This document shows, piece after piece, positions 7,581 through 41,624 of a stretch of DNA of 64,000 nt. Under the pieces are notes generated by a model. The model saw only the letters and a program-made list of their open reading frames with translations, was not told the origin of the DNA and ran no database searches. This DNA comes from a virus. How positions within the stretch are numbered: position 1 is the first letter of the stretch; each line of letters opens with the position of its first letter. Location: positions 1 through 64,000 of the IMG/VR virus record IMGVR_UViG_3300037116_000081; one strand, written 5' to 3'. The position numbers and the translations under genes were made by a program.

Positions 7581-8807
7581 GTGGACTATCTCGACAGCGG
7601 CTCTATGTACGGGTCCTTAGATAGCGCTCCCCTTGCGCCTCCGGATCCGCAATCGTCAACGCCAGCGAGCGCAGCGATCGCGAAAACTGGCCCTATCATT
7701 AAAGAGAAGATCCCCGCGGCGCCCGACACCGACACATCGACTAAGCAGACCATTGCGAAGATGTGCGAGTACATCGCGGCCGGCGCCTCCGATGACGTGT
7801 GCCAGTTATGGGCAAAGCAAGCGCGCGAACGTTGGGCTGGCCAGTTCAACCAAGTAGCGTCTGTAACCGGCCGAATGGTGCCGCAAACCTCAGGCGATTG
7901 TTGGGGCGTGTGGTGGATGGTGAAACACGCCGTCAAGTTCGCGAAGGACGAACCGCGGTTGTTTCAGATCGGTGAGCCCGATGCGCTCGATTTATTGATA
8001 GCGCCCGCGGTGCTCGTGCGTGAACAGGATCGCAAGGAAGATTGCGACGGCTTCACGATGCTGGTGTGCTGCCTACTCAAGATTCTGGGGATCTCATCGG
8101 TCATTGTGACGGTGGCGGCGGACCCATCCGATCCGGAACGCTGGTCGCACGTCTTCCCGATGGCTGAAGTGAACGGTGCGTATCTTCCAATGGACGCATC
8201 GCACGGAAAGTTCCCTGGCTGGATGGTTCCGCGCGATCACATCTCCCGATGGCAGGCTTGGGACCTCAACGGCAATCCAGTGCAGGCGTTTCCGTCACAG
8301 GCGAAGAACACGCTACACGGATATCTTCCACGCGGGGCGCCGATGCGGAAACGCGGGATGCGCGGACTCGGGCAGACGGACTATACATCAGTGGCGAGCT
8401 CCACGGGTGACTACCAAGTTTTCAGTGATGGCACAGTCTTTGATCCGAACGGCAATGTCGTTACAGATTTCAGCGCGTTGCCTAACTCGTTAACGACCCA
8501 GATTAACAGTGCCCTGAATCCGCTGGCCATCAGCACGCCCGCAACGCCAACTGCCACCAGCGCGTCCGGAACCCCTACCAACTGGACCGGCATTATCAAC
8601 AGTATCGTTTCAGGCGGATTGAAAGCAGCGCAGCTTGCGACGTTGCCTCCGGGCTATGTGATCGGCGCGAATGGCCAGCCCGTGTACACAGGGCAGTCCG
8701 CGGCGAATGCACAACTCACATCCAGCTTCGCGAGTATCCTGCCGTGGTTAGCGATTGGATTGGTTGCGGCTGTAGTGGTCATTCCACTTCTTGGGAGCAA
8801 GCAGTGA
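7581..8807 (+). CDS. Transglutaminase-like cysteine protease/acyltransferase with C-terminal membrane anchor
   Basis: EDCDG...HVFP...PMDAS Cys-His-Asp triad; RGMRGLGQ motif; PW-TM tail; start is GTG 7581 or ATG 7605. Confidence 0.8.
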   Translation: MDYLDSGSMYGSLDSAPLAPPDPQSSTPASAAIAKTGPIIKEKIPAAPDTDTSTKQTIAKMCEYIAAGASDDVCQLWAKQARERWAGQFNQVASVTGRMVPQTSGDCWGVWWMVKHAVKFAKDEPRLFQIGEPDALDLLIAPAVLVREQDRKEDCDGFTMLVCCLLKILGISSVIVTVAADPSDPERWSHVFPMAEVNGAYLPMDASHGKFPGWMVPRDHISRWQAWDLNGNPVQAFPSQAKNTLHGYLPRGAPMRKRGMRGLGQTDYTSVASSTGDYQVFSDGTVFDPNGNVVTDFSALPNSLTTQINSALNPLAISTPATPTATSASGTPTNWTGIINSIVSGGLKAAQLATLPPGYVIGANGQPVYTGQSAANAQLTSSFASILPWLAIGLVAAVVVIPLLGSKQ

Positions 8808-9557
8808 ATGTACGTCTCTTCAAGATCTTCCGTCTCGCGCTGCACTGGAGTAGCAGCGCGGGGAACAGTCTCGCGATCGCTTGGCGATATCTCCTCACCG
8901 CAGTCCATCAATCAGATAGTAACGGTTGGCGCATCGACTACTGTTGGAATTCTTGTAGCGTTAGGCACGGTTACGGGTCCGATTGGAGCGGCCATCGCTG
9001 GCTTGATCGCAGTTGGCTCGCTTATCGCCAACATGTTTCACGGCTGTGGGCAGACCTGCGTAGTCGCGACACAGGACGCGAACAAGATCGGCGCGTTGCT
9101 CGATCAGAATCAGGCAGCGTATATGAACGCCCCGGTTCACTACAAGAGCTTGCAAGCGGCGGCGCTAAACAACATCAACACGCTCGCGGCGGCATTGCAG
9201 CAAGCGTGCAGCGATCCATCTTTAGGGCAGGCTGGGCAGCGCTGCATCTCCGAAAGATTGGTCAGGCGTCCGTGTCCGAGCACGTTGAACGATTCGAATA
9301 TCGGCGGCGGGCAGATCAAGTTCTGCGATTACTGGAGCTTCTATTACGATCCGATCGCGAACGATCCGAATGTAGTTCCGGACCCCACGCCAGCTTCGTC
9401 GGGTCCAGCTTCAGCGGCGGTCTCTTCGGTGGGCTCCGCAATTTCTTCTGTGCTGCCTTCATCGGTCAGCAGTCTTTTGACCGGGAGCGTCTTTGGTCTT
9501 CCAGTGTGGCTGCTCGGCGCGGTGGCGCTCACGGCCTTGTGGGTGGCGAGCGAATGA
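8808..9557 (+). CDS. Putative virion membrane protein
   Basis: SLGD motif, Gly/Ala TM hairpin, Cys-rich domain and C-terminal PVW-TM. Confidence 0.75.
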   Translation: MYVSSRSSVSRCTGVAARGTVSRSLGDISSPQSINQIVTVGASTTVGILVALGTVTGPIGAAIAGLIAVGSLIANMFHGCGQTCVVATQDANKIGALLDQNQAAYMNAPVHYKSLQAAALNNINTLAAALQQACSDPSLGQAGQRCISERLVRRPCPSTLNDSNIGGGQIKFCDYWSFYYDPIANDPNVVPDPTPASSGPASAAVSSVGSAISSVLPSSVSSLLTGSVFGLPVWLLGAVALTALWVASE

Positions 9558-9615
9558 TCCGTTTTCCTCGCATCCTCGCATCATTTTCCTCGCATCCTCG
9601 TATTGCGGAGGCCTT

Positions 9616-10443
9616 GTGTTTCTAAAAGTACAAGCGGGGCTCTCCGGCATCGGCCAAACCGTTCTGATGCGTCAACCAGGCGGGCGCGTGATGCGCGTCC
9701 AAATGCCGATCGTGTTGGATAGGCCTCGGGGGATGCGTGGCTTAGGCGTTACGTGTCCCACGGGCTTGGTGCAGGCTGCAAACGGCGGCTGCATTGATCC
9801 TGGTTACGCTCCCAACAAAAATGTAGCGGCGGCAAGTCCCAAAGCCGTGACCTACGCATCGGCTCCCGGCTGCAACGTGGTGAACCTCGCATCGAACGAA
9901 TGCATGTTGGACGACGGGACAATCACGGGCTGCAACATCATCCAGCAGTGTGATTCGCTCACCGGCAACGCGAGATGTCAGTATGGGCCGTTCCCTGGCC
10001 AAGCTGCTGATCCAAGTTTGCCGTTCTGCTCTGGAAGCGGGCCGTCCGTTTCGTACACGCCGAATTTGAGTCTCACGAACCCGACAGGGCCGTCAACGCC
10101 GTTCACTCCCACGGCGCTTGCGCCGAATGCCGTTCCGGTAGGATCGAGCCCCACGGCGGCGCAGGTTAAAAGCCTGCTTGGGCAGACTCAGCCTACATCG
10201 TCAACGGCAGCGAGTTCGCCGGCGGCATCGCCAACACAGCCGAGTTCCCAAACGAATTTTCTCCAGCAACTCTTAGCCGGGCCGAATCCTCCAGCGGGCG
10301 GATCGACTACGGCGGTGGCGTCTTCGGATAGTTCGTTATTTAGCGGTTCGCTCGACGTGTTCGGTATGCAGATTCCATACTGGCTCATTGGTGTTGTGGT
10401 CGTCGGCGGCGGGATTCTCCTCATGAGCGGGGGCAAGAAATGA
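9616..10443 (+). CDS. Cys-rich tail-anchored virion membrane protein
   Basis: GGAGG RBS and GTG start; GLSGIGQ and RGMRGLG motifs; PYW-TM-GGKK. Confidence 0.75.
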   Translation: MFLKVQAGLSGIGQTVLMRQPGGRVMRVQMPIVLDRPRGMRGLGVTCPTGLVQAANGGCIDPGYAPNKNVAAASPKAVTYASAPGCNVVNLASNECMLDDGTITGCNIIQQCDSLTGNARCQYGPFPGQAADPSLPFCSGSGPSVSYTPNLSLTNPTGPSTPFTPTALAPNAVPVGSSPTAAQVKSLLGQTQPTSSTAASSPAASPTQPSSQTNFLQQLLAGPNPPAGGSTTAVASSDSSLFSGSLDVFGMQIPYWLIGVVVVGGGILLMSGGKK

Positions 10444-10727
10444 GACGCGGCTTTCGTGGTCTCGGTCAACCATCATCGCCTTTGCCGATGTCACCAGGTG
10501 GATTCTGTCCAACGCTCGGCGCTGTGTGTCCCTACGGCTATACGCTCGACGCGAGCAACTGTCCGAACTATCCATGTCAAGCCGCGGCGGTCGCTACGGC
10601 TACAACCGGAATCGATTTTTCGTTTCTCACAAATCCGGTGATGATTGGAACCATGTCCATTCCGACGTGGGCTATCGGGCTCGCCGTGATCGTGGGCGGC
10701 TACTTCCTGATGGGAGGCAAAAAATAA
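10440..10727 (+). CDS. Small tail-anchored virion membrane protein
   Basis: MRRGFRGLGQ leader; PTW-TM-GGKK. Confidence 0.8.
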   Translation: MRRGFRGLGQPSSPLPMSPGGFCPTLGAVCPYGYTLDASNCPNYPCQAAAVATATTGIDFSFLTNPVMIGTMSIPTWAIGLAVIVGGYFLMGGKK

Positions 10728-11335
10728 TGGCTAAGCAAGACGGCACGATGGGCGAAGTAATCAAGTGGGTTCTGATTTTGGGCGGCGGGTATCTCGCTTA
10801 CGAGTATTTCATTGCGCCGATGCTGGCCACGACTCTGGCGCCCACGACCGGCGTAACGCCAGCAGCTACAACCGTGACGGGCACACCGGTATCGAGCACG
10901 AATACGACGACGGCTACTCCGGTTACTGTGACGACGCCTCCTCCGCCTCCCGTCAATGCGTACCCACTTTCAAACACGATTCCGAATGCAACCGGGACCG
11001 CGGCTACTCTCGCATCAGCCTTGATTGCGCGAGCGACTTCAGACGGTGTTGCAAAGGGCGGATTGGTCAATGGAAGTATCGCCTACACTCCACAGCAGTG
11101 GAATTACATTTTCAACGAAATGAATCCCGGTAACACGAAGAACCTGCCTAGCTCTTCGCAGGCCATGAGCGCGGGCGATTACACACTCGCGCGGGCGACG
11201 GCGTTTGGACAAGCGGGATTGAGCGGGCTCGGACAACTGATGCGCGTCGGGCGAAATACTTTACGGACAGGCGGGCGTCAACCGATGCGAACAGGATATG
11301 TACGGGCAGGAACGCCAATGCGGAGGACCGGATGA
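10727..11335 (+). CDS. Virion membrane protein with N-terminal TM
   Basis: TAATG coupling; Thr/Pro linker; C-terminal GLSGLGQ followed by an Arg-rich tail. Confidence 0.75.
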   Translation: MAKQDGTMGEVIKWVLILGGGYLAYEYFIAPMLATTLAPTTGVTPAATTVTGTPVSSTNTTTATPVTVTTPPPPPVNAYPLSNTIPNATGTAATLASALIARATSDGVAKGGLVNGSIAYTPQQWNYIFNEMNPGNTKNLPSSSQAMSAGDYTLARATAFGQAGLSGLGQLMRVGRNTLRTGGRQPMRTGYVRAGTPMRRTG

Positions 11336-11694
11336 GACTCTATAGAACTCCGATGCGTGGCTTTCGTGGATTAGGGCAGACGTATCAGACCGTCTCGACT
11401 GCTGCTGGCGACTATCAAGTAGTTACGGCCCCGGACGGAACAGTCACCACTTTTGACCCATCAGGCAACATCGTTTCTGGCGTTGCCGTGGGGCCGCTTC
11501 AAGCTGGCCAATCAGCGCTCGCGTTTTCTGCGTCAATCAATCCATCAGGCTCGGCGGCTCCGGCTTCACTCGCGTCTCTGTTTCCAGGAATGACTGGCAA
11601 TACAACTGTTGCTGGTGTGTCGGTCCCTTCGTGGCTCGTGCCGGTTGCTCTGATAGCTGGCGCGTTTTTCGTCTATAAGGCTTTTGGGAAATGA
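11332..11694 (+). CDS. Small tail-anchored virion membrane protein
   Basis: MRGFRGLGQ; region after the motif is homologous to that of 7581..8807; PSW-TM. Confidence 0.8.
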   Translation: MRLYRTPMRGFRGLGQTYQTVSTAAGDYQVVTAPDGTVTTFDPSGNIVSGVAVGPLQAGQSALAFSASINPSGSAAPASLASLFPGMTGNTTVAGVSVPSWLVPVALIAGAFFVYKAFGK

Positions 11695-11921
11695 AGAATC
11701 CGGCTCCAACCCGTTTACGTGACGCCGATCCGCGCGGGCGCATGGACGTAGCTGCGTTTCGCTTCGCTGAGAACATGGCAGAAAAAGCAGGCGCGAAGGA
11801 ATTCTGGAATGCGGGCTTGGGTGATTTTGTCGAGACGGTGATTAACGGCACGGTGCCGGCAAAAGCAATCACAGGGCAGGATGTAGCGAAGGCGCTGGGT
11901 TTGGGAGGCAGAAAGCGGTAA
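11691..11921 (+). CDS. Small hypothetical virion protein
   Basis: Coupled on both sides; AGLGD motif. Confidence 0.65.
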   Translation: MKNPAPTRLRDADPRGRMDVAAFRFAENMAEKAGAKEFWNAGLGDFVETVINGTVPAKAITGQDVAKALGLGGRKR

Positions 11922-12436
11922 TGCCTTATTTCCGCACAGGAGCACGGATGCGGCGCGGCGTCGGCCAAATCGCTACGGCTACGCTTGGGCCGGCCGGAAC
12001 GGGCATCGCTCAATACGACGCGAGCGGCCGCTACTTGGGCGGGAGCACGATGATGGATGCGTATTGCGGTTCAAGCATCGGGCAGTTCTTCAGTCCGACT
12101 ACGTGCGCGATCCCGACTCCAGCGCAAATCACGGCTACGCAGACTGCGGAACTTGCGACTACTTCAGCTCCCCCAGCAGTGCAGGCGGCGGCGATCGCGG
12201 CGGGCAATGCGCTAGTTGCGCAAGACGCGGCAGCAAACCCGGCAAATTACCAACAGCAGATCGCGGCGTCGAATTGGCCGGAACTTTCAGCGCTGATCGG
12301 TCCCGCGGCGGTGGCTACGTTGTTTCCCGTCGATGTGACGGATCCGAATAATCCAATTCCCCAAGTCCCGTGGCTTCTGATCGGAATTGTAGTGGTGGGC
12401 TTCTCTGTCTTCTACGCATACGGAGGGAAGCATTGA
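11921..12436 (+). CDS. Tail-anchored virion membrane protein
   Basis: MRRGVGQ leader; PW-TM-GGKH. Confidence 0.8.
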   Translation: MPYFRTGARMRRGVGQIATATLGPAGTGIAQYDASGRYLGGSTMMDAYCGSSIGQFFSPTTCAIPTPAQITATQTAELATTSAPPAVQAAAIAAGNALVAQDAAANPANYQQQIAASNWPELSALIGPAAVATLFPVDVTDPNNPIPQVPWLLIGIVVVGFSVFYAYGGKH

Positions 12437-12768
12437 GCTACATCCAATACACACCGAAAGCTCCACTCTCTACGTGCGTGACGAAGGTGCGTGGGATGGG
12501 GCAGGACGCGACTTCAACTTCGACGGACACCGTAACAGGGCTCTCGATTCCGAATCCGCTTACGATCTTCAGCAATCTTTTTTCATCGACCGACTTTTCA
12601 ACGTGGGGTATAGGTGAGTGGATCGTAATCGCGGGCGTCGGGTTTCTCGCGTTGAAACTCGTTACCGGTGTGCTCTCGGCAGGCAGCGCAGTAAAGAGCA
12701 CGGTTCGTAAGCGGCAGCGGCGAGCGAAGAAGCGGCAAGGGCTGCTGGACGATCTGAGGGATCTATGA
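12433..12768 (+). CDS. Virion membrane protein with basic tail
   Basis: TTG overlapping the upstream stop; VRGMGQD; TM followed by RKRQRRAKKR. Confidence 0.7.
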   Translation: MSYIQYTPKAPLSTCVTKVRGMGQDATSTSTDTVTGLSIPNPLTIFSNLFSSTDFSTWGIGEWIVIAGVGFLALKLVTGVLSAGSAVKSTVRKRQRRAKKRQGLLDDLRDL

Positions 12769-12832
12769 GACGACTGAGGGACACCCCGAAAGCTTCAACG
12801 CGCTGCTACTCCAGTGCAGCGCGAAACGGAGA

Positions 12833-13192
12833 ATGTTCATGAGAGGATTCGGTAGCTACAGCAAAACTCCAACTCCATGGGGATGGGAATATTATCCCCC
12901 ACCGTACCGCTTTGCTTCACCGTCCACGGGGCCTAGCGGAATACGTCCGACTTACGCGAGCGCGCGATACATGGGCATGACAACACGAGCGTTGAGCAAC
13001 CAGGGCGGCGGGCTCGGATGTGCGGGGCAGTGCGGTTGCGGTGGGACGTGCGGCATGGGGCAAGTGGATCTTTCGTTTCTGACGAATACGTTCAGCTTGG
13101 CGGGCTACCAGATTCCGGTCTGGATTGGGCTCATGGTTGGGATCGGCGCGGTCGCAATGTACAGCGGGTTGAGCAATAAAAAGAGACGATGA
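12833..13192 (+). CDS. Tail-anchored virion membrane protein
   Basis: MRGFG and CGMGQ motifs; PVW-TM-KKRR. Confidence 0.75.
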   Translation: MFMRGFGSYSKTPTPWGWEYYPPPYRFASPSTGPSGIRPTYASARYMGMTTRALSNQGGGLGCAGQCGCGGTCGMGQVDLSFLTNTFSLAGYQIPVWIGLMVGIGAVAMYSGLSNKKRR

Positions 13193-13434
13193 CTTTAACG
13201 CTTTCACAAACGGCGCAACCTCAGATTTTTACCGATATGGGCTCGTATGCCCACGTCGGAGTGGGATTCATGGCCGGGTATCTTTCACCTGGCTGGGCGC
13301 TCGCGATTGCGGCGGCGTTCATCGGGTATCAATTGTCTCAGGTTTCGGCGGGCGTGCCCTGGGGACGGACGGGCGGGGAAGTGATCGAGTTTGCGTTAGG
13401 AGCTGCTATAGCGGCGCTGGTGGCAAAAAAATGA
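13189..13434 (+). CDS. Small 3-TM membrane protein
   Basis: Hydrophobic; translationally coupled. Confidence 0.7.
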   Translation: MTLTLSQTAQPQIFTDMGSYAHVGVGFMAGYLSPGWALAIAAAFIGYQLSQVSAGVPWGRTGGEVIEFALGAAIAALVAKK

Positions 13435-14369
13435 AGCGGCGAAAAACCAATTCAGCAAAGTACGGGCGGCGGAATTCAAGCGGCGATACATCAACGGATG
13501 TTCGCAGCCCAACTTCAACTGAAGTGCGAAGCCCTACCAAGACTTCGACTGAAGCTTATACGCAAGGAAACTTCACGGCCACAGTAACGGGCGGCGCAGG
13601 AGCCGGTGCAACTACCAGCGTGACAATCAAACCGAACCGGGGCAGGCGTGATGCTTTCGCGATTTGCAAACGCACGCGCGGGAATCCGTCACGGTGGAAT
13701 CCACTCGTGCCACTCGATCCAATCTCGGTACTTTCGGCGATCGAAGGGCAGCGCGAGAAGATCGCGAAGAAGCTGTTCACGAAGAACGCCAAGAAAGCGC
13801 GGAAGAATCGATTCGGCAAAAAGCGCGTAGTGCTGCACATGAAGCGCGGCAAGTCCGGGAAGTTTGCGCAGCGGAAGAACAGGGGCAATCCCGTCATGGC
13901 GGCAGAGAAGCGCTATCAATCCTTCCACGGCCGGCCTAGCGAAGACTTGGTTAACGTGCGGACCACGCTGCATTCGCATGACGTGCTCGCGGGCATCGGC
14001 GATCTCCGCAAGCTGAAAATCAAATCCGCAAACGGTCACTGGAAAGTAACAGTGAAATTCTTGAAGCCTTACCCGATTCTATCGATGAACGAAGCCGCAA
14101 CCCAGCTTTACATCGAAGGGGGTGATCAATCCGTAGACTTGAGGGACTTCGGAATCAAAACTCCACACGAAAAAGAAATACTCGGTCACGTCACGGACGT
14201 GTGGTACTTCACAACGAAAGATCACTTACGACCGGAAGACGGCGGCACGGCGATCTACCACCACAAATTCGGAAAGATCAAGCCGACGATGATTTACGAC
14301 GTACCGAACCAGCTACTCGAATTCGCGGGTGGCGGCTACACTATCCCGGATGAAGGGATCGACCAATGA
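13431..14369 (+). CDS. Basic core/nucleoprotein-like protein with globular C-domain
   Basis: K/R-rich N-half with recurring [RK]xN(P) motifs. Confidence 0.7.
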   Translation: MKRRKTNSAKYGRRNSSGDTSTDVRSPTSTEVRSPTKTSTEAYTQGNFTATVTGGAGAGATTSVTIKPNRGRRDAFAICKRTRGNPSRWNPLVPLDPISVLSAIEGQREKIAKKLFTKNAKKARKNRFGKKRVVLHMKRGKSGKFAQRKNRGNPVMAAEKRYQSFHGRPSEDLVNVRTTLHSHDVLAGIGDLRKLKIKSANGHWKVTVKFLKPYPILSMNEAATQLYIEGGDQSVDLRDFGIKTPHEKEILGHVTDVWYFTTKDHLRPEDGGTAIYHHKFGKIKPTMIYDVPNQLLEFAGGGYTIPDEGIDQ

Positions 14370-14620
14370 AAAAGGCGCGCAAGAATATCAGCTTTAGAAA
14401 GTACAAAAAAGAGTTGAACCGCAAGCACTCTCCGGCGAACGCGAGACTCTATCAGTCATTCCGAAAAGAGGAGCAACGTATCGTGAGAGCGCGACGAAAG
14501 AAGGCGGCAAAATCCAATCCGCCAAAGACCCGCAAAGGCAAGACGGGACGCTGGATCAAAGCCAAAGCTGTGAAGGTGACACGAGTCAAAGGAAAGCTTG
14601 TAGTGCAGGTGAAACGGTGA
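14366..14620 (+). CDS. Very basic small protein (DNA-condensing candidate)
   Basis: More than a third K+R; KSNPP motif. Confidence 0.7.
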   Translation: MKKARKNISFRKYKKELNRKHSPANARLYQSFRKEEQRIVRARRKKAAKSNPPKTRKGKTGRWIKAKAVKVTRVKGKLVVQVKR

Positions 14621-15981
14621 GTATCGTATCCTTCATCCCGAAAGCCCTGCGCAAGGACAAGCCACCAGTCCCGATGATTAGTCTGTGTCAAACAACGGCG
14701 CGGCTACCGGACGGCTGGAGAGCGGCGGCACAAGCCTGGAAAGACGCGGCGGACAACCCCGGCGACATCGAGCACGTTATTGTAACGGACGATCCAGCCT
14801 TCAAGGCGGAGCCCATATTCGCGGATACGAAGATCGGCGTGAACAAGGGCCGGCATTCCGCGGTTGACGGCTGGAACACTTCAGCGCAACTCTCAACGGG
14901 AAAGTTCCTCATCACGCTTGCGGATGACTGGTTCCCCTGCCCTCACTGGGATACAGAATTTCTGAAGCTCATCCCGGATCTTGACGGCGAGTACGTTTTG
15001 GAAGTGGACACGGGAGGGAATCCCGGCCTGCTGACATTCTCGCTTCTGACTCGGAAGTATTACGAGCGCTACGGGTATTTTTTCTGGCCTCAGTATCTCG
15101 GCATGTACGCTGACAACGAATTCACGATTGTGGCGCGGCGTGACGGCGTGGTGATCGACGCGAAGCATTTATTCTGCGAACATCGGCACCCGCTCTACGG
15201 CTTCGGCGAGATGGACGAGACTCACAAGCATCAACACCGGCGCGAAGCCTTCGAGGTAGGCGAAGAGGTTTATCGGCGGCGGCTTTTGCATCTCGGGTTC
15301 GCCCAGCAGTATGTTCCGCCCCGCAGTTATTCGATCGCGATTTGTATGCCGGGTGAATCGTTCAAACCGGACTGGGTAGCCAACACTCTGAAGCTCACGA
15401 ACTACATTGCGGCGGAAGCGAGTGTTTTTCCGATGCCTGGCTACGCTCCAAATCCGCACATCGTTCGGCAGGGCATGTCAAGCGAAATCCAAAAGATAGA
15501 GCCGATGCCGGATCTGGTGTTGTGGATTGACCACGATAACCTGGTCGCCCCGATTCACTTCGCGCGGCTGTACGGGGTCCTGAAGGAACATCCGGAGATC
15601 GACGGCGTAGCAGGCTGGTGTTATTGGGGGCAAGAAGAAGGGCCACTCAACATCTCGTGTGGCGTTTATGGCGATGGGCGCCGGCATTATTTCAGCGAAG
15701 CCGAATTGCGGAACGGGCCGGAACTCAGGGAGATTGATTTCACCGGCTTCCCGTGCTTTCTGATGCGCGGCGAGACGCTGAAGAAAGCCGGCAAGAATGC
15801 TTTCGCGCCGATATCGGATGAAACTTTCCCGTACGGTTTCGTTCCGGAAGACCTCGCGTTTTGCAGACGGGCGAAAGAAGCGGGATGTAGGTTCATGGTG
15901 GACCGGACGGTTTACGTCCCCCATCGGAAGGTCCAAACGTTGGAGCCCAGGGAAGGGAATAAAAAGCTTTCAGTTGCGTAG
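14617..15981 (+). CDS. Two-domain GT-A (family 2-like) glycosyltransferase
   Basis: Domain 1 has GWN..A/LADD/YADNEF; domain 2 has WIDHD/TGFPCFL/EDLAFC..G.RFMVD..VPH. Confidence 0.85.
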   Translation: MSIVSFIPKALRKDKPPVPMISLCQTTARLPDGWRAAAQAWKDAADNPGDIEHVIVTDDPAFKAEPIFADTKIGVNKGRHSAVDGWNTSAQLSTGKFLITLADDWFPCPHWDTEFLKLIPDLDGEYVLEVDTGGNPGLLTFSLLTRKYYERYGYFFWPQYLGMYADNEFTIVARRDGVVIDAKHLFCEHRHPLYGFGEMDETHKHQHRREAFEVGEEVYRRRLLHLGFAQQYVPPRSYSIAICMPGESFKPDWVANTLKLTNYIAAEASVFPMPGYAPNPHIVRQGMSSEIQKIEPMPDLVLWIDHDNLVAPIHFARLYGVLKEHPEIDGVAGWCYWGQEEGPLNISCGVYGDGRRHYFSEAELRNGPELREIDFTGFPCFLMRGETLKKAGKNAFAPISDETFPYGFVPEDLAFCRRAKEAGCRFMVDRTVYVPHRKVQTLEPREGNKKLSVA

Positions 15982-16021
15982 ATGCCCCGGTCAATCGGGA
16001 GCCCTAAAAGGAGAAAGTAGT

Positions 16022-16498
16022 ATGAAGACAAAACATCTCATCGGTTTTCTGGCGGCATTGCTAGTGCTCGCGTTCTTCAGTGTCGCCTTGGTTGTTCACG
16101 ATCAAATTTCCATCCGGACATTGGCCGTGTTTCTCGGATTCGCCTCTTTCGCGTTCGGAACCGTCACTGTGACGTATCAGGTCCCGATCCAAGGAACCAG
16201 CGCGCCCACTGCGGCACAGGTCTACGGGCTCGGACTAATCACGGCTCAAGTCAATAATGCCGACACGGACGCTTCCATCACGATCACGCATAACTTTGGT
16301 CTTGATGCAAACGAATTGGCGGCGCTCTACCCGTTTGTCATCATGAACCAGGATTCAGGCGGAACCACGTTGCCTGTCTACGAAGTTTCGAAGGCTACCA
16401 ACTCGGTGACGATCACGAAGGCGTCAACGTCCGGGACTGGTGGAACCTTCGACGTGTGTATCTGGCGCCCGCCGACGAATCAGAGGCCGCGCGTTTAA
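16022..16498 (+). CDS. Membrane-anchored beta-rich virion protein
   Basis: AGGAG RBS; two N-terminal TM segments; ITHNFG fibre-like motif. Confidence 0.7.
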   Translation: MKTKHLIGFLAALLVLAFFSVALVVHDQISIRTLAVFLGFASFAFGTVTVTYQVPIQGTSAPTAAQVYGLGLITAQVNNADTDASITITHNFGLDANELAALYPFVIMNQDSGGTTLPVYEVSKATNSVTITKASTSGTGGTFDVCIWRPPTNQRPRV

Positions 16499-16523
16499 GG
16501 CGGCCTGACGCAAGGGAAAACAC

Positions 16524-17390
16524 ATGGCGCAGACCACACGAGAAAGAATTATCGCAAACCGAGGGAAGCGGAAAATGTCTGCAAAGCAAATCCGCATCTT
16601 CGGCACGCGCGCGCAAAAGGCGCGGCTCCGCGGAACGCGGAAGCGCGCAAACTCTTCGCGGTCGAATCATCGCCGTCGATCGCGATCCAACAAGGGCGAG
16701 ATCATAGGTTACACGTTTGCTCAACCGGCAAGCAGAAAGAACAGAGGTAGGAAGATGGCAGCTACAAAGACAAAACGTAGACGCCGTGCCCGCTCCGGTG
16801 GGCATCGCGTTAACCGTCGTCGAAACACTGGGCGTCGGAGAAATTTCGTTCACCATCGCCGTCGCGGCACCATGCGGCGCATGAACCGCGGGCGTCGTCG
16901 GAATCCCGGCATGCTAGGAACGGGGCGAATCTCATCCATCGCGATCAATGCAGTATTCGTGATCGTCGGTGCGGTGGGCTCGAAGCTCCTGGCCCAAATG
17001 GTCCTCGGGACAAACAACACCGGCGTAGTCGGATACGCGGCGAATGCGATCGCGGGCGGCGCAATGTGGTTCGTGGCTGAAAAAGTCATGCACAACACAG
17101 ACGCAGCCAATGGCATCATCGCAGGTACCGCGGTCGAAATCATCCTTCGGTTGATTAACGACTACACGCCGTTCGGTTCCTACGTGGCGGGCCTCGGCAT
17201 GGGCGATTACCAGGCGCAAGCTTGGCTGACTCCCCAGGTCCTGGTTGACCCGTACAAAAACGCCAACATTCAGTGGCCTCAAGGGTTACTCTCGGCCGTA
17301 ACCCCGCCTCCCGCGGCAGTCATGCCGGCTTCGGTCGGCATTGCAAGCGGGATGGGGGATCTCTACGGCGGGAAGTCTTCGCTGTACTAA
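16524..17390 (+). CDS. Major core/membrane protein candidate (Arg-rich N-half, TM C-half)
   Basis: Protamine-like repeats ending in RRRNPG, 3 TM helices, GLGMGD and GMGD motifs; directly upstream of the capsid candidate. Confidence 0.75.
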   Translation: MAQTTRERIIANRGKRKMSAKQIRIFGTRAQKARLRGTRKRANSSRSNHRRRSRSNKGEIIGYTFAQPASRKNRGRKMAATKTKRRRRARSGGHRVNRRRNTGRRRNFVHHRRRGTMRRMNRGRRRNPGMLGTGRISSIAINAVFVIVGAVGSKLLAQMVLGTNNTGVVGYAANAIAGGAMWFVAEKVMHNTDAANGIIAGTAVEIILRLINDYTPFGSYVAGLGMGDYQAQAWLTPQVLVDPYKNANIQWPQGLLSAVTPPPAAVMPASVGIASGMGDLYGGKSSLY

Positions 17391-17489: not shown

Positions 17490-18173
17490 ATGGCATATGG
17501 CGCAAACGGCCAGATCCCAACTGCTGAAGAAGCTCAGGGCAGAAACACAAACTCGATCATGCAGGGCTTTGTTGATCGTGGCCCCTGGCAGTATTGGGAC
17601 GACATCTATTTCGCAAATGCGACGGTAGTTCCGCCGCAAATCCAAATCTTTCAAAACGCCATTGGGCAACAGAACCCCCAAGGCGCAGTAGGCGGTCCCA
17701 CCAACGGCGTGGCGAAAACCAAGCTCCAAACGAACTTGACTCGCCCCGCTTCGAGCGGGCTCCCGCCTCCCCGTTGTCTTTTGCTTCTGGCCATTGGGTT
17801 CGAGTTCTCCTCGAACTTCTTGAAGCCGGATATCGACGCGATTCTCAACTCCTGTTACATGGAGTTCCGCATCGACGACAAGATTTTCCACGAAGGGTGG
17901 CTCGTAACCTTTCCGGCCGGTGCGGGGCTCATGGGAGTCACGCAAAATTCGGGCGAGTCCGTGTACACGTGCGGATTCCCGGCTCCCCAGGCTCAACGGC
18001 GGTACGCTGACTGGGCCAAGTACATTGCTCCGCTTCAGCAGTTCTCCATGGTGCTGAATTTCGGCGGCGGCGGCGTGGCGGCCCCGACTATCGGAACCGG
18101 ATTGACGACCATCAACTATCCTGGCAACCTACGAGTTGTCTTGGATGGCTTGACAGATCGGTCGGTTCAGTAA
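17490..18173 (+). CDS. Putative single jelly-roll major capsid protein
   Basis: 227 aa, soluble and beta-rich; AAGGA RBS, structured leader and downstream hairpin; central position in the structural module. Fold is inferred. Confidence 0.55.
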   Translation: MAYGANGQIPTAEEAQGRNTNSIMQGFVDRGPWQYWDDIYFANATVVPPQIQIFQNAIGQQNPQGAVGGPTNGVAKTKLQTNLTRPASSGLPPPRCLLLLAIGFEFSSNFLKPDIDAILNSCYMEFRIDDKIFHEGWLVTFPAGAGLMGVTQNSGESVYTCGFPAPQAQRRYADWAKYIAPLQQFSMVLNFGGGGVAAPTIGTGLTTINYPGNLRVVLDGLTDRSVQ

Positions 18174-18547: not shown

Positions 18548-19204
18548 ATGTACGTCACTTCCGACATGGCATGTAACCAGCCGAACAGCGCTACTCCAAT
18601 GAGTCAAGCGCGGATCACGGCACAGAACAACCGTGTCGCGAGAGTCGGCAGTCAATTCGAAAACGGCAACGCAATCTTGAGCAACCTGGTTCAGAAACTC
18701 GGCGGGATAGGAATCGGGAACCCTCCGGGGACTTCACCACGAACCACTACCCCAACATTTGTGAATTCGCCGTCATGCTCAACCGCGGTACTCACTGGTG
18801 GCGGAATCTACGGCCGGCGTCTTCCGGTTCTTGGCGGACCAACTGGCCAGCCGATGTTGCAACCTGACGGGACGTGGGCACTCCCCGCGACTCCGGGCGC
18901 CCCTTCTCTCGCTACAGTGGGAGCCTCAACGAACGGCGCAAGTTTAGTAAGCACGGCTCCCGCGGTCCCTGCGGTTGCGAACGCGGCAACCATCGGATTA
19001 GAGAACAACGTCCCTGGTGGATCGAGCCCCGGAATAACTCCTACGACTTTAGGCGGCGGCGGACTATATGACGGAACGGGTTACTGCGCGGCAAACCGTC
19101 CGAGCATTCCAGCGCAACCGGGTGGGGCAGACGTCAATCCGATGTGGCTATTAGGTGGATTACTTTTCATCGTCGGCATAAGCGCAATGATGGGCAAAAA
19201 CTGA
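18548..19204 (+). CDS. Tail-anchored virion membrane protein
   Basis: Gly/Pro/Thr-rich; PMW-TM-GKN. Confidence 0.7.
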   Translation: MYVTSDMACNQPNSATPMSQARITAQNNRVARVGSQFENGNAILSNLVQKLGGIGIGNPPGTSPRTTTPTFVNSPSCSTAVLTGGGIYGRRLPVLGGPTGQPMLQPDGTWALPATPGAPSLATVGASTNGASLVSTAPAVPAVANAATIGLENNVPGGSSPGITPTTLGGGGLYDGTGYCAANRPSIPAQPGGADVNPMWLLGGLLFIVGISAMMGKN

Positions 19205-20559: not shown

Positions 20560-21365
20560 TCGAGCGGCCACAGTGGTACAGCTTCTCTTATGTCAACACC
20601 GCTTTGGCGGCGGGCGCGCAGCGTCTTTATCAGGAGTTGACGCTCGACACTGACGCGCCGTTCCGAATGACAGGCGTTGCGGTGTACGTCTTCAATTCAG
20701 CAGGCGTTCCGCTAGGACCGGCGGGTAACGTTGGGGTGACGTTGCGGTTCACGATGCCGGATTTATCGTGGATTCAAAAACATCTCGACTCCGCGCAACT
20801 TGTGAATACCTACGACGCGCAAGCGGTTAATGGTGCGGGTGGTCTGACGGCTCCCTACTACGCTTACTTTTCTCCGCTCGGGAAAAACCTTTTCTATCAG
20901 ACAGGCTCGCGTATCGTGATTGACTTCGCGGAACTCGCGGGAATCACAGACGCCGTGGTGATGATTGTTTTCCTCGGGACCAAACTCTACGGCGATGGTT
21001 CGGTGTGGTGGCCGATTCATGACCCGACGAAACCAGCTCGGCCTTATATCGGTTACTCAGTGCAGTTCGATCCGACCAAACTTCCGTTGTATAACATTCC
21101 GTTGAGCATCAACCCGGATGCGGATTTCGCTTGGCAGTGCGGCGCCCAAACATCGCAACCCGCGGCGGCTCTTTCGCCGGTAGGGGCAATCCGGAACATC
21201 GGGATCAAGGTCAAAGACTGGACGGGAAAGTATTACATGAACGACTACATCCCGCTCGATCTGATCTTTGGCTTCGACAATTCTCAAACGCCCGGCTTGT
21301 TGTACCCTGAAATCTACATTCCGAAAAATCAATTGCTCTACATGGATCTGGAGACCTTGGGATAA
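20556..21365 (+). CDS. Minor capsid-like protein with two tandem beta domains
   Basis: ATGA coupling; LDTDAPF..FLGTK / INPDADF..KDWTGKYYMND repeats. Confidence 0.6.
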   Translation: MIERPQWYSFSYVNTALAAGAQRLYQELTLDTDAPFRMTGVAVYVFNSAGVPLGPAGNVGVTLRFTMPDLSWIQKHLDSAQLVNTYDAQAVNGAGGLTAPYYAYFSPLGKNLFYQTGSRIVIDFAELAGITDAVVMIVFLGTKLYGDGSVWWPIHDPTKPARPYIGYSVQFDPTKLPLYNIPLSINPDADFAWQCGAQTSQPAAALSPVGAIRNIGIKVKDWTGKYYMNDYIPLDLIFGFDNSQTPGLLYPEIYIPKNQLLYMDLETLG

Positions 21366-22594
21366 TGGGCGGATTTCTATTCAATAACAAGATAATCGGC
21401 AGCGGCGGCTATCCGCAGAGCGATCAGTTTGGGATTTTCATGACGCCGATCAACGGGCCTGACGGCAGTACCTACCCACCAGGTGGAGCCGTTTTAGCTT
21501 CGCTTGCCGTGTGCGCTCCATTAAGCAGCGGGAGCGGTGCCGGATATGCCGCAGCAATAGTATTGCAACGGCAAGGTTATCCGGGCGGCTGGCTGAATCA
21601 ACTGGATTTGATTCCGGGCACGGGCGTGGACGCGACAGCAACGGCGGGTTTCCCCGGACTGAGCGGAAACACTGCCATCATCAGCTACTATGTGTCCGGC
21701 GTGTTTCCAAACGGCGCGGCATTCGCTTGCGTGAGAAATTCTGTCGGGGTGTGGAGCATTCAGCAGCAATTGGTCCCTGGCGACGGCGCTCCGCAGCAAA
21801 ATTACGGCTTCACATGCTCTATCTTTGGAAATATCGCAGTGATTGCGTCAACGGTGGGAGACGGCCCCGCTATCTATGTGTTTCTGCGAACCGGGACCAC
21901 GTGGACGCAGGTCCAGCAGTTCCAACCGGGCGACATAGGGCCGAGTGACGATCTTGCGGTAGCGGCGATGACCGCGAACCAATTGTTTCTGAGCGCGAAT
22001 GAGCAGAACACGAACACCGGCGCGGTGTACGTTTACACTCTCGTGGGCGGGCAATACCAGTTCACTCAGAAACTTGTTGGAGCTTCGGCCAATGATTTCT
22101 TCGGCGTTAATGTGAGCTGCGACGGGAACACGCTGGTAATCGGCGGCGGCTTCAGTACCACTGGCAAAGCTTACGTCTACACCAAAGCTGGATCAGCATG
22201 GGCAATTTTGCAGACGCTCGTAGGATCAGACAGCTTGAGCGGAGACAGGTTCGGCGAAGGCGTTGCGGTATCTGGAACGTTGATGGCTGTAGGGGCTCCT
22301 ATTGCTACGGTAGGCGGACATGCTATTGCCGGCGCGGCCTACGTCTTTCAATTGATCGCGGGGGTTTGGACCCAAACGCAAAAGCTCACAGCGCCCGTGC
22401 CGGCAGCCAACACCTATTTCGGTTTGTCGGCAGGAGCCATTGCCGGATCACCTTCTTGGATCGCAGTGGGCGCTCCGGCGATCGCGAACGCGGCAGTAGA
22501 AGGCGCGGCGTACTTTTTCTACGGCCCTGCAATCGCGCCTGTAGCTGATCCCTTCGTGACCCTGACATTCAAAGGACAGAAGGTGTACGCATGA
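21365..22594 (+). CDS. FG-GAP-repeat beta-propeller protein (spike candidate)
   Basis: Repeated FG.(G/S)V...VGAP...GAAYVF...W.Q.QKL units. Confidence 0.85.
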   Translation: MGGFLFNNKIIGSGGYPQSDQFGIFMTPINGPDGSTYPPGGAVLASLAVCAPLSSGSGAGYAAAIVLQRQGYPGGWLNQLDLIPGTGVDATATAGFPGLSGNTAIISYYVSGVFPNGAAFACVRNSVGVWSIQQQLVPGDGAPQQNYGFTCSIFGNIAVIASTVGDGPAIYVFLRTGTTWTQVQQFQPGDIGPSDDLAVAAMTANQLFLSANEQNTNTGAVYVYTLVGGQYQFTQKLVGASANDFFGVNVSCDGNTLVIGGGFSTTGKAYVYTKAGSAWAILQTLVGSDSLSGDRFGEGVAVSGTLMAVGAPIATVGGHAIAGAAYVFQLIAGVWTQTQKLTAPVPAANTYFGLSAGAIAGSPSWIAVGAPAIANAAVEGAAYFFYGPAIAPVADPFVTLTFKGQKVYA

Positions 22595-28542: not shown

Positions 28543-29163
28543 ATGAACCCCCTCGGCACACCAGCTTACTTACCAGGCATCGACGTTTCGCACTTCCAGG
28601 GAGTCATAGACTGGCAGCGCGTGAAAGCGGCGGGCATCGGATTCGCATTTATCAAGGCGACGGATGGGACAGGCTTTGTGGACCCGCAACTGAACTACAA
28701 TGCTCTTGCTTGCCAAGCGCTGAGTATCCCGTTCGGGCTTTACCATTTCTTCCGGCCCACCGCGGACTCTGCGTCACAGGCTCAGTTTTTCCTGGCCAAC
28801 ACCAAGCCCTATACCCCGTTGCTTCCGCCTGCGCTTGATCTGGAACTCGGCCCGGTGACAACGAGTCAAGCGGCTACATGGCTCGACATCGTAGACGTGG
28901 CGCTTGGCCGCGAATCTCTGGTGTACACTGCCCCGGCTTTCGCGGCCGAGAATTTTAACGGCGAAAACTCAGGACTGATCAGCGTCTATCCCCTCTGGAT
29001 TGCAGAGTACACAACCAAACCTGCCCCAACTGTGCCGGCCGCGTGGGAAGATTGGGAATTCTGGCAGCACACCCCGAGTGGACAAGTTGACGGAGTACCG
29101 AATGCAGTAGACTTAGATTGGTTCCATGGAACAGCCGACGATTTAAGGGCATGGGTGAAATGA
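28543..29163 (+). CDS. GH25 muramidase (endolysin)
   Basis: GIDVSHFQG.IDW, IKAT.G, GLYHF, LDLE, LWIA.Y, FWQ and VDLD motifs. Confidence 0.95.
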   Translation: MNPLGTPAYLPGIDVSHFQGVIDWQRVKAAGIGFAFIKATDGTGFVDPQLNYNALACQALSIPFGLYHFFRPTADSASQAQFFLANTKPYTPLLPPALDLELGPVTTSQAATWLDIVDVALGRESLVYTAPAFAAENFNGENSGLISVYPLWIAEYTTKPAPTVPAAWEDWEFWQHTPSGQVDGVPNAVDLDWFHGTADDLRAWVK

Positions 29164-29222: not shown

Positions 29223-29600
29223 ATGGCGACTAAGCGTAAACAAGTTCGACCCACGAAAGGGGAACCCGCTCAACCGTCTCCCGCTGGTTTTGAAGCATGG
29301 GCTATTATCGAAATCTTTGGCCACCAGAAATACGCGGGCAAGGTTTCGGAGTTCGCAATCGGCGGGTGTAATTTCGTGCGCGTCGATGTTCCCGAGCTGC
29401 CCACGCGCCGTCCACAGGAACCGGCCATGCCCGCGTTTACCAAGCTCTTTGGAAACGGAGCCGTGTATTCGATCACGCTTGTATCTGAGGACGTGGCCCG
29501 CGCGGTCGCTGCGACGATCCGGCCAGAGCCGCTCAACGTTTACATCCCGATAATCCCTGACCGCCAGTTGCGCTCCGGAGACGAGGACGGATTTCAGTGA
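29223..29600 (+). CDS. Conserved phage protein (WAIIEIFGH family)
   Basis: Close inverted copy at 33789..34175. Confidence 0.8.
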   Translation: MATKRKQVRPTKGEPAQPSPAGFEAWAIIEIFGHQKYAGKVSEFAIGGCNFVRVDVPELPTRRPQEPAMPAFTKLFGNGAVYSITLVSEDVARAVAATIRPEPLNVYIPIIPDRQLRSGDEDGFQ

Positions 29601-29676
29601 TGTCGCCGACCGTTCGGAATCTTGGGCAGGGCTACTTCAGTGCCCTGCCGACAGCCCCTGGAACCTGAAAAGATTC

Positions 29677-30210
29677 GTGTACCTCTACTACCAACCCCGG
29701 CGAAGAAGAGGCTTCGGTGATCTCTCAACCGTTGCGGCCGCGATTCAGCAAATTGAAGGTTGGGCGCCCGGTACACGATCTTACCGCAATAACAATCCTG
29801 GGAACCTGATGTACGCGGGGCAACCCGGCGCGACTGGCCAAGATCCTCAAGGCTTCGCAATCTTTCCGGATTATCAAACCGGGCTCACGGCGCTCGACAA
29901 TCAAATCACACTCGACGCTTCGCGCGGCCAGACCATTTCGCAGTTCACGTCCATCTATGCCCCGGCGTCAGACGGAAATAACCCCACGTCGTATGCGGCG
30001 CAAATAGCTTCAGCGGCCGGCCTCTCACCTTCAGACTCACTTTCAGCAGCAATCGCGGGCTCCAGCTCGGCGCCCGACGTTTCAAGCGGTATGGATCTCT
30101 CATCGCTGTTTCCGTCGCTCAGCCTTCCGTCAATCGACTTCACGGACCCGACGACAATTGCCGTAACGGTGGGGATCGGCCTGGCGCTGGCGTGGGCACT
30201 GAATGCGTAA
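29677..30210 (+). CDS. Virion-associated lysozyme-like protein with C-terminal TM
   Basis: I..IEG...RNNNPGNL...FA.F...G..AL...YAP..D.N.P..Y; RRRGFGD leader. Confidence 0.8.
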   Translation: MYLYYQPRRRRGFGDLSTVAAAIQQIEGWAPGTRSYRNNNPGNLMYAGQPGATGQDPQGFAIFPDYQTGLTALDNQITLDASRGQTISQFTSIYAPASDGNNPTSYAAQIASAAGLSPSDSLSAAIAGSSSAPDVSSGMDLSSLFPSLSLPSIDFTDPTTIAVTVGIGLALAWALNA

Positions 30211-33719: not shown

Positions 33720-33788
33720 TTCAATTTCCAGGAGTTATCGGCAGGGCACTGGAGTAGCCCTGCCCAAGAGGTTGGACGGTCGTAGAGC

Positions 33789-34175
33789 TCACTGATAATC
33801 ATCCTCGTCTCCTGAGTGCAACTGGCGGTCAGGGATTACCGGAATGTATATATTGAGCGGTTCAGGGCGAATCGTAGCGGCAACCGTGCGCGCTACGCCT
33901 TCAGATACAAGAGTGATCGAATACACAGCGCCGTTCCCAAAAAACTTGGTAAACGCGGGCATCGCGGATTCCTCGGGACGTCGCGCTGGCAACTCCGGAA
34001 CATCGACGCGCACGAAGTTACATCCACCGATTGCGAACTCGGAAACCTTGCCGGCGTATTTTTGATGTCCAAAGATTTCGATAATCGCCCATGCTTCAAA
34101 AGCAGCGGGGGACGGTTGAGCAGGTTCGCCTACCCGTCCCCCTTTGGGGTGTTGAACTTGTTTGCGAGTGCCCAT
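33789..34175 (-). CDS. Conserved phage protein, inverted paralogue of 29223..29600
   Basis: Direct alignment. Confidence 0.8.
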   Translation of the reverse strand: MGTRKQVQHPKGGRVGEPAQPSPAAFEAWAIIEIFGHQKYAGKVSEFAIGGCNFVRVDVPELPARRPEESAMPAFTKFFGNGAVYSITLVSEGVARTVAATIRPEPLNIYIPVIPDRQLHSGDEDDYQ

Positions 34176-41062: not shown

Positions 41063-41368
41063 CTACAAGAACCTCTGCGCTACCCAACCGACTCCCAGGA
41101 TCATCAGCAGTCCACAAATTTCATAGATTTCCCTAAAGTGAAAGGGATATTCTCTTTCGGGTTTGGGCTTCTTGAAATTACGCCGCCTGAACATCGCGAC
41201 AAGGCAGGACACGCCAATACTTCTTGCTACACCCAACGGTCTGACGTCGGTATAGGAAACGATAAACCACAGCCAAAAAAAGCTGGTTACGTATCCGGCC
41301 AAAACAATACTGATAGGCACCAGCAATATCCCGACGCAGCCCCAAGCCGAATCTTTTGTTTCGCCCAT
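41063..41368 (-). CDS. 3-TM membrane protein
   Basis: Leaderless start after the repeated promoter. Confidence 0.65.
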   Translation of the reverse strand: MGETKDSAWGCVGILLVPISIVLAGYVTSFFWLWFIVSYTDVRPLGVARSIGVSCLVAMFRRRNFKKPKPEREYPFHFREIYEICGLLMILGVGWVAQRFL

Positions 41369-41373
41369 GCGTT

Positions 41374-41473
41374 AATCTTGCCTCAGCGCGCGCACGCCGT
41401 CAAGATCCGGAAGTACTAGGACTCACACGCCAGCATCATCTTCCGTTTCGCGCTGAACTGGGGTTTCAGCGCG
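41374..41473. repeat. Direct repeat copy 2
   Basis: Matches 266-365. Confidence 0.95.
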
Positions 41474-41623: not shown

Positions 41624-41624
41624 T

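Follow-up and report, generated by a model that had tools for sequence, protein, structure and literature searches.

Does an enzyme encoded beside some dozen proteins that carry one short tag act on that tag, and what would it then do for the virus? The question is raised by DNA from an uncultured soil virus that is probably tailless and membrane-containing. The window, as we call the whole stretch of 64,000 nucleotides analysed, comprises bases 1-64000 of the 85,924-base IMG/VR record IMGVR_UViG_3300037116_000081, and its + strand genes g1-g16 (7605-17390) begin with an enzyme of transglutaminase-like fold (g1) and encode a series of proteins that share the sequence G-[LMFVI]-G-[QD], here termed the strict tag. 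We show here that enzyme and tag occur together across relatives and that the last residue of the tag switches in concert within genomes, and we hold with moderate confidence that a tag-directed protease is the most likely reading of the locus.

A short tag recurs beside the enzyme

An initial annotation of the window had described a motif common to about 12 proteins next to the enzyme. Every string that it listed was located in the sequence (g1-g10, g16 and the protein encoded from 29677, g33), RSLGD being a variant that misses the first Gly. The sharing itself is borne out by the curated genes (16 proteins, 3,195 residues; start codons picked by Shine-Dalgarno sequence), in which 12 strict tags are spread across 11 of the 16 proteins, an enrichment over within-protein shuffling, which gave a mean of 0.60 motifs and in 0 of 10,000 rounds reached 12 motifs or 11 proteins. 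In a mechanical set of open reading frames (ORFs) the density is 2.84 motifs per 1000 residues in the module against 0.16 in the other 134 ORF products of the record; outside the module this set holds 4 motifs in 3 proteins. Motif-like strings additional to the list are AGIGD (g12), a second RGMRGLGV (g3) and MFMRGFGS (start of g10).

The tag starts at residue 7-21 in g3, g4, g6, g8, g9 and g33, and in these six proteins it ends a short leader, as had been described. In g5 it stands 32 residues ahead of the C-terminus, and linkers hold it in g1, g12 and g16. A P(x)W, a transmembrane (TM) helix and a short tail close eight proteins (g1, g2, g3, g4, g6, g8, g10 and g18), the number originally counted; seven of the eight have a basic tail, the exception being g2, which ends ASE. 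The genes of the module that bear on the tag, all on the + strand, are as follows.

7605..8807, +, g1: tail-anchored enzyme of transglutaminase fold (Cys-His-Asp); ORF open from 7560, with ATG 7605 as the likely start; C-terminal end LPWL-TM-GSKQ
8043-8045, 8148-8150 and 8193-8195, +: Cys, His and Asp sites of g1
8352-8375, +: tag of g1 itself, RGMRGLGQ
8808..9557, +, g2: membrane protein; leader MYVSSR...RSLGD with a degenerate tag; C-terminal end LPVW-TM-ASE
9616..10443, +, g3: GTG start at 9616 with GGAGG upstream; leader (M)FLKVQAGLSGIGQ; GLSGIGQ at residues 8-14, then RGMRGLGV; C-terminal end IPYW-TM-GGKK
10440..10727, +, g4: 95 residues; starts MRRGFRGLGQ; C-terminal end IPTW-TM-GGKK
10727..11335, +, g5: N-terminal hydrophobic anchor; GLSGLGQ near the C-terminus, then a 32-residue Arg-rich tail
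11332..11694, +, g6: starts MRLYRTPMRGFRGLGQ (contains RGFRGLGQ); C-terminal end VPSW-TM-FGK; body homologous to the C-terminal part of the enzyme
11691..11921, +, g7: basic, 76 residues; AGLGD internal, orthologues with GLGD
11921..12436, +, g8: starts MPYFRTGARMRRGVGQ (contains RRGVGQ); C-terminal end VPWL-TM-GGKH
12433..12768, +, g9: TTG start at 12433 with GGAGG upstream; VRGMGQ at residues 19-24 (24-residue leader); central TM helix; long basic C-terminal tail
12833..13192, +, g10: starts MFMRGFGS; CGMGQ internal; C-terminal end IPVW-TM-NKKRR
13431..14369, +, g12: basic N-terminus; AGIGD internal, the site being invariably Asp in relatives
16524..17390, +, g16: polybasic N-terminal ~130 residues, hydrophobic segment, invariant YVxxLGMGDYQ (GLGMGD region), SGMGD near the C-terminus

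The g5 family is kept in relatives, and in the alignment of g16 (A4) G225, G227, D228, Y229 and Q230 are invariant. The N-terminal ~130 residues of g16 are rich in Arg, Lys and His, vary among relatives and are followed by a conserved hydrophobic domain, a layout that recalls DNA-condensing or membrane-active precursor proteins. Orthologues of g2 start MYVSSRGLGQ, MYVRSRGFGQ or MYLSSTRRGFGD. In the window the g2 leader (8808-8900) reads MYVSSR-SSVSRCTGVAARGTVSR-SLGD in place of MYVSSRGLGQ, and the extra stretch bears the peptide signature of the record's dispersed hairpin repeat (CTGVAA, FR[FL]ALHWSS, ETPVQRETE). Judged by this signature, a copy of the hairpin repeat inside the leader-coding region seems to have degraded the tag.

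The enzyme has a transglutaminase-like fold and carries the tag in its own linker

In the numbering of the 415-residue ORF, C162, H197 and D212 are invariant in alignments of 13 and 40 sequences; Cys162 lies within D-C-D, and DCDxF[TS]M is kept in 112 of 120 homologues. The AlphaFold2 (AF2) model of the enzyme has a predicted local distance difference test score (pLDDT) of 66 overall and of 83-96 over most of the core (residues 151-210). Aligned with VIA, the model matched the putative protease 3kd4 best (Z 14.0, root mean square deviation 3.0, 155 residues aligned), followed by PNGase (Z 11.2), factor XIII (10.4), TG3 (10.0), 3isr (10.0), TglA (9.4), LapG (9.0), PeiP (8.5), PeiW (8.3) and the CPR-C4 protease (7.9), and the rows with Z above 5.5 were mostly entries of the transglutaminase superfamily. 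The top Foldseek matches were putative Cys proteases (best E 3.8e-4). The invariant triad and the structural matches agree with the Cys-His-Asp transglutaminase-like fold given by the initial annotation; the fold alone cannot separate a protease from a transferase. Adenain was not among the matches listed by Foldseek and VIA, an absence that does not exclude similarity. The enzyme matched no family in Pfam (E up to 0.1; Transglut_core and DUF920 included), NCBIfam or PHROG, no PDB entry by sequence or profile, and nothing by tblastn in 50,697 phage records.

The family is large. A search returned 185 matches, all of them unnamed and lacking a Pfam domain and none on a contig longer than 45 kb; in a library clustered at 50% identity the family accounts for 2,707 clusters with an E limit of 1e-3 and for 566 when the limit is set at 1e-30. 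Of 120 homologues, 110 have the strict tag in the linker of the enzyme itself, usually as RRG-x-G-[QD], at least 60 residues past the catalytic Cys in a linker that is otherwise variable, and 119 have a terminal TM helix; in 77 further representatives the tag was found in 55 and the TM helix in 75.

The part of the enzyme that begins with the tag and the entire body of g6 are homologous (42% identity over 72 residues, E 1e-12). In g6 the same tag follows a 12-residue leader, and in the enzyme the catalytic domain takes the leader's place. By this homology the enzyme looks like a catalytic domain joined through the tag to a g6-like tail-anchored protein, which is the layout of a processing junction. 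In one clade of short enzymes (215-270 residues) the catalytic domain leads directly to the TM helix and the enzyme is untagged; its neighbours are still tagged.

Enzyme and tagged array occur together across relatives

The initial annotation had proposed to follow motif and enzyme across genomes. In 42 loci found via the enzyme, 41 viral contigs and the window, a tagged array lies downstream of it in all 42. In the 10 kb that follow the enzyme (369 kb in total), + strand ORFs contain 175 strict motifs, against 12 in the opposite-strand ORFs of the same DNA and 14 in the 10 kb upstream (346 kb). G-hydrophobic-G is followed by Q or D 74 times out of 275, compared with 4 of 71 on the opposite strand. 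Motif-rich relatives that lack the enzyme, which the annotation had named as evidence against its view, were not found in a search confined to this family: all 8 contigs longer than 30 kb that were found via g16 or g17 carry the enzyme, and three short fragments cannot be judged. The motif persists over enzyme identities of 29-100% while its flanks vary.

Across 222 non-redundant tag contexts, Arg precedes the first Gly in 34% and Ser in 17%, the middle residue is Leu in 42%, Met in 30%, Val in 11%, Phe in 9% and Ile in 9%, and the last is Gln in 50% and Asp in 50%. At most 30 residues separate the tag from a plausible start in 124 of these contexts, and 103 lie in ORFs with a C-terminal TM helix and basic tail. 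Such C-terminal tails, 206 across relatives, have Pro at the helix start in 147 cases and P.?W in 68. Curated sorting-domain models (NCBIfam, E up to 1; LPXTG, PEP-CTERM and GlyGly-CTERM) were unmatched by eight tail-bearing or neighbouring proteins, and the P(x)W-TM tail may be either a signal for sorting or a plain tail anchor.

The last residue of the tag follows the genome

Use of Q or D differs among the 28 genomes with at least three sites (chi-square p 7e-7); when the labels were permuted 20,000 times, the observed within-genome majority was never reached. A second comparison set the enzyme against its neighbours. The 74 unique loci were narrowed to the 41 with 3 kb or more of downstream sequence, and these to the 23 with an own-linker tag; one tie (1 Q, 1 D) was dropped, and g12-type and g16-type sites, which are always Asp, were excluded. 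In all 22 genomes that remained the enzyme's own Q or D is the majority of its neighbours, with 78 Gln and 11 Asp sites in own-Gln genomes and 2 Gln and 36 Asp sites in own-Asp genomes; loci were de-duplicated only by an identical 130-residue core, and close relatives remain among the 22. Mapped on the enzyme tree, the label has switched 4 times (2 of the switches fall on supported branches), with the neighbours following suit in each case. Indeed, orthologous leaders switch with the genome (MYVSSRGLGQ versus MYLSSTRRGFGD), genomes that use Asp alone occur (for example 0 Q against 10, 8, 8 and 7 D), and some lineages have Ala after G-hydrophobic-G. Such a change of the last residue in step across the proteins of a genome points to a single reader for all of them.

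One position of the enzyme, R/K six residues before the Cys, was picked by mutual information (present in 27 of the 41 D-type enzymes, and in 7 of the 62 that are Q-type) and was dropped as non-significant in tree-aware pairs: independent pairs went the same way in 2.6 cases, the opposite way in 0.7 and showed no difference in 5.7 (median p 0.625).

Similarity to a structural protein of SSIP-1

SSIP-1 (Salisaeta icosahedral phage 1) is described in PMC6260650 and PMC6356626 as icosahedral and tailless, with T=49, an internal membrane and a circular double-stranded DNA genome of 44 kb. Its record (JN880423; 43,788 bp, circular) annotates gp34 as 'structural protein'. Compared with gp34 by hhalign, the enzyme profile gave a probability of 95.6% (E 1.3e-8) across 176 columns. 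The DCDG, His and Asp motifs fall within the match, and RARGMGE of gp34 aligns with the enzyme tag, the residue after G-M-G being Glu. The layout is also the same, a catalytic domain being followed by R-G-M-G-E in a linker, LPYL-TM and the short tail SSK. By this profile match the enzyme is a distant homologue of gp34. The homologue being annotated as structural in a cultured internal-membrane phage, a virion context for the enzyme is plausible. Further likenesses are a G-hydrophobic-G at residues 17-34 of ORF36, gp37, ORF52 and gp53, a terminal TM helix in several late proteins, and a genome size similar to that of complete relatives of 41-45 kb. SSIP-1 was not retrieved by tblastn from the window's enzyme, and the g17 family gave an hhalign probability below 1% against SSIP-1 gp45 and gp46. 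Searched by tblastn against the same 50,697 phage records, gp34 retrieved SSIP-1 itself and two weak partial matches only. One weak match, of gp34 residues 77-151 (E 1e-3, 32% identity), is to BK065156.1 (7845-8078), the record of the archaeal membrane virus Geoglobus acetivorans pleomorphic virus 1.

Genome context and neighbouring genes

The 85.9-kb record looks composite. Self-BLAST ties both ends to the middle through diverged repeats (bases 1-1913 with 41365-43190, 76-95% identity; record 85609-85924 with 41623-41938, 95.6% identity). The right part holds genes of tailed-phage type for a large terminase, portal, head protease, capsid and neck, together with a tape-measure-like ORF at 59514-63506. 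The left part (~2.4-38.6 kb) is collinear with a complete relative of 44,054 bases with direct terminal repeats (G001), which has zero matches to the right part. In the four complete relatives (G001, G002, G003 and G005; 41-58 kb) the record's terminase, Terminase_6N and TerL_ATPase were all unmatched; of the two families the control, the window's right arm (G000), matched Terminase_6N alone, below the cut-off. The record thus looks like a ~42-kb arm without tail and a ~44-kb tailed-phage arm joined at repeats of 76-96% identity, and the junction could be a real co-integrate or a mis-join. Because of the collinearity with G001 and the terminase null in complete relatives, the enzyme and tagged array are taken to belong to an arm that acts like a ~42-kb genome of its own, in which neither tail nor terminase genes are recognisable. 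A Walker-A search of the left arm did not find a convincing packaging ATPase.

Other features of the left arm are listed below.

17490..18173, +, g17: candidate jelly-roll capsid protein, untagged
18548..19204, +, g18: Pro/Gly-rich; C-terminal end NPMW-TM-GKN; strict tag none
28543-29163: GH25 endolysin
29677..30210, +, g33: outlying tagged protein beside lysis genes; starts (M)YLYYQPRRRRGFGD (contains RRRGFGD); C-terminal TM helix

The AF2 model of g17 is a beta sandwich (pLDDT 60) whose best VIA matches, at Z 5-7 (at most 7.0), are largely viral jelly-roll capsid proteins, which make up many of the 50 rows (SPV1, FLiP, PBCV-1); Atlas gives a weak lead to PM2 P2 and PRD1 P3 (0.77-0.78). The host has a peptidoglycan wall, since the arm encodes a GH25 endolysin. 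Across the enzyme and ~30 neighbours, Pfam, PHROGs and NCBIfam matches were limited to a glycosyltransferase, an FG-GAP protein, the GH25 endolysin and an FkbM methyltransferase, and the tagged proteins were unmatched in all three. The glycosyltransferase-like protein, of 454 residues, lies within the membrane-protein block (14617-15981) and has weak model matches in both halves (PHROG at residues 49-207, Pfam GT2 at 284-446); many of its neighbours are Ser/Thr/Pro-rich. The FG-GAP repeat protein (21365-22594) comes after the capsid-like genes, and a gene of 125-128 residues is present in two inverted copies (29258-29669 and 33720-34131) with 84% DNA identity.

Discussion

How could an enzyme and a tag of this kind work together? 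We propose that the 7.6-19 kb block encodes membrane proteins of a tailless, probably membrane-containing virus distantly related to SSIP-1, and that g1, a putative cysteine enzyme of the transglutaminase (papain-like) fold, would be held on the membrane by its P(x)W-TM-basic anchor. Enzyme and neighbours share this type of anchor and should therefore lie on one membrane face, and their large N-terminal parts are probably cytoplasmic because signal peptides are absent and the N-termini are Arg-rich. The enzyme would recognise the linear tag (Y-V-x)-[R/K]-G-hydrophobic-G-[Q or D] in apparently flexible stretches and cut at it, stripping basic leaders and tails, and a cut in its own linker would free the catalytic domain from the g6-like anchor; the cutting would be a maturation step of the particle. 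If the scissile bond is G|Q/D, as we propose, the hydrophobic residue would occupy P2, and papain-like enzymes usually prefer a hydrophobic P2. Four points of this scheme are inferred: that g1 is what reads the tag, that it reads by cutting, which bond is cut, and that the system is located in the virion of this virus. The dedicated virion maturation or sorting system put forward in the initial annotation gains from the co-occurrence, the tag in the enzyme's own linker, the concerted choice of Q or D and the structural annotation of gp34; for the tail, a plain anchor would serve as well as a sorting signal.

It should be emphasized that several observations weigh against a tag-directed protease. 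The model of the enzyme, a putative protease, has a pLDDT below 50 over the tag (residues 248-273), so that docking in the active site cannot be read from it. The concerted switches between Q and D amount to 2-4 independent events, too few for a sign test, and some of the 22 genomes are close kin; some genomes keep G-hydrophobic-G with a relaxed next residue, and no enzyme column co-varies significantly with the Q/D label. Some leaders have only 1-4 residues (for example M-G-L-G-Q), and their removal would be of small use. In the short-enzyme clade (L009-L013) the peptide after the g5-type tag is conserved, with the C-terminal sequence Y-x-G-I-P-A-S-A-I-H-G-G-W; it is therefore not a throw-away propeptide and, judging from this conservation, may have a function of its own. 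The jelly-roll capsid assignment of g17, with Z at most 7 and pLDDT 60 for the model, is suggestive only.

It could be argued that the tag is read by another viral component, such as a capsid, scaffold or membrane-assembly protein, as a docking or sorting signal that brings the membrane proteins, the enzyme among them, into the particle, and that catalysis is aimed elsewhere, for example at the host wall on entry or exit. Such a role is suited by the presence of the tag at N-termini, at C-termini and in apparently flexible linkers, as with short linear motifs, by very short leaders, which fit a binding tag better than a propeptide, by the virus-encoded wall-cutting PeiP (Z 8.5) and PeiW (Z 8.3) in the fold list, and by a Q/D switch that no enzyme column tracks. 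A GH25 endolysin is already encoded, however, tag and enzyme are strictly linked in every genome examined, the build of catalytic domain, tag and g6-like protein looks like a processing junction, and the short-enzyme clade has tagged neighbours and no tag of its own; on these grounds we regard a separate reader as rather unlikely. The array might instead have no shared reader at all and consist of diverged paralogues that keep ancestral ends, the motif reflecting descent or a local structural need. Bodies unrelated in length and composition, a motif that moves between N-termini, C-termini and linkers and outlasts its flanks over the whole range of enzyme identities, and switches of Q and D in concert within genomes make this improbable, despite the homology of g6 to the C-terminal part of the enzyme and the likeness of the P(x)W-TM tails across the array.

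The chemistry could also differ. In a sortase-like transpeptidation, cleavage at the tag would be followed by transfer of the new end to an amine of another viral protein's Lys tail, of a lipid or of the cell wall, creating covalent links in the particle. Acyl-enzyme intermediates of the transglutaminase fold can transfer to amines, factor XIII and TG3 align with Z of about 10, most anchors end in Lys or Arg, and motif, TM helix and basic tail recall sorting signals; many tails, however, end in Arg rather than Lys, and known sorting-signal models were unmatched, and we give such a transfer only a slim chance. Slimmer still is the case for classical transglutaminase cross-linking with the Gln of the tag as acyl donor, a role that the initial annotation had allowed for the enzyme. 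The fold would permit it and Gln ends about half of the tags, but the other half of the 222 non-redundant tags end in Asp, whole genomes use Asp alone, and Ala in other lineages and Glu in SSIP-1 gp34 take the same place. A Gln-dependent reaction thus cannot be the common mechanism, and it was rejected as a general one on the strength of the Asp-only genomes.

A tag-directed protease would have several counterparts among known systems. The adenovirus protease (AVP, or adenain) follows the site rule (M/I/L)-X-G-X|G, which M-R-G-L-G and L-S-G-L-G of the window resemble. As described in PMC4246237, a single cysteine protease here processes many proteins of the particle at a short consensus that contains Gly, for example IVGL|G freeing pVIc, and strips N- and C-terminal peptides from basic, DNA-binding or membrane-active precursors (pVI, pVII and p-mu). 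The same source gives the catalytic order His54, Glu71, Cys122, in contrast with Cys162, His197, Asp212 here, and the fold class differs; the enzyme, moreover, is predicted to be membrane-anchored in a bacterial host, whereas AVP slides on DNA. The likeness to adenain, poxvirus I7L and African swine fever virus (ASFV) pS273R drawn in the initial annotation therefore holds as analogy at most, and homology is not indicated.

Tripartite C-terminal sorting signals (LPXTG with sortase, PEP-CTERM with exosortase) consist of a short motif, a TM helix and a basic cluster, and the P-x-W, TM helix and basic cluster that end many proteins of this one locus are similar; in contrast with those systems the enzyme itself bears the tail, no sortase or exosortase gene was seen, and a plain tail anchor explains the tails equally well. 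In phage T4, short shared N-terminal leaders on unrelated internal proteins (the capsid-targeting sequence) are removed at a consensus site by the prohead protease gp21, a serine protease of another fold that acts at L/I-x-E on soluble head proteins. The likeness lies in the shared leaders and in one protease with a consensus site; T4 differs in being a tailed phage, in the fold and site of its protease and in having soluble rather than membrane substrates. A proven protease with a transglutaminase-like C-H-D triad is LapG, which cuts a conserved site, Ala108|Ala109, near the N-terminus of its substrate and is dead as a Cys mutant (PMC3032545). It matches the enzyme in structure (Z 9.0), and the enzyme has no DUF920 match; unlike the enzyme, LapG (BTLCP, DUF920) is a cellular, periplasmic, soluble protein that is regulated by LapD and cyclic di-GMP and cuts a di-Ala site in one substrate class.

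Ripening of virions by a consensus-site protease is known from adenoviruses, poxviruses, ASFV and tailed phages. In the literature searched, mainly as listings and abstracts, neither such ripening in bacterial tailless membrane-containing phages nor a pairing of enzyme and tag was found described. What is new here is a candidate consensus-site virion protease of a different fold, membrane-anchored, in bacterial tailless phages, and a non-homologous transglutaminase-fold enzyme and its shared tag recur in a very large uncultured family. The cultured SSIP-1 makes the idea testable at the bench, and the genome-specific Q or D lends itself to specificity swaps. Evolutionary accounts touch on the same point: the model in one review, in its passages on jelly-roll viruses, derives the maturation protease of that lineage (adenain/Ulp1) from a eukaryotic transposon and presents the prokaryotic jelly-roll viruses as being without one (PMC6260650). 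A bolder idea, which we consider unlikely as matters stand, is that of a private, fast-evolving maturation code, in which each lineage would fix its own residue after G-hydrophobic-G (Q, D, A or a relaxed choice) on all membrane proteins and the enzyme linker at once, so that its own enzyme alone would ripen its own particle. If true, bacterial viruses of the jelly-roll or internal-membrane kind would here have their first maturation protease system, one that arose independently of adenain/Ulp1.

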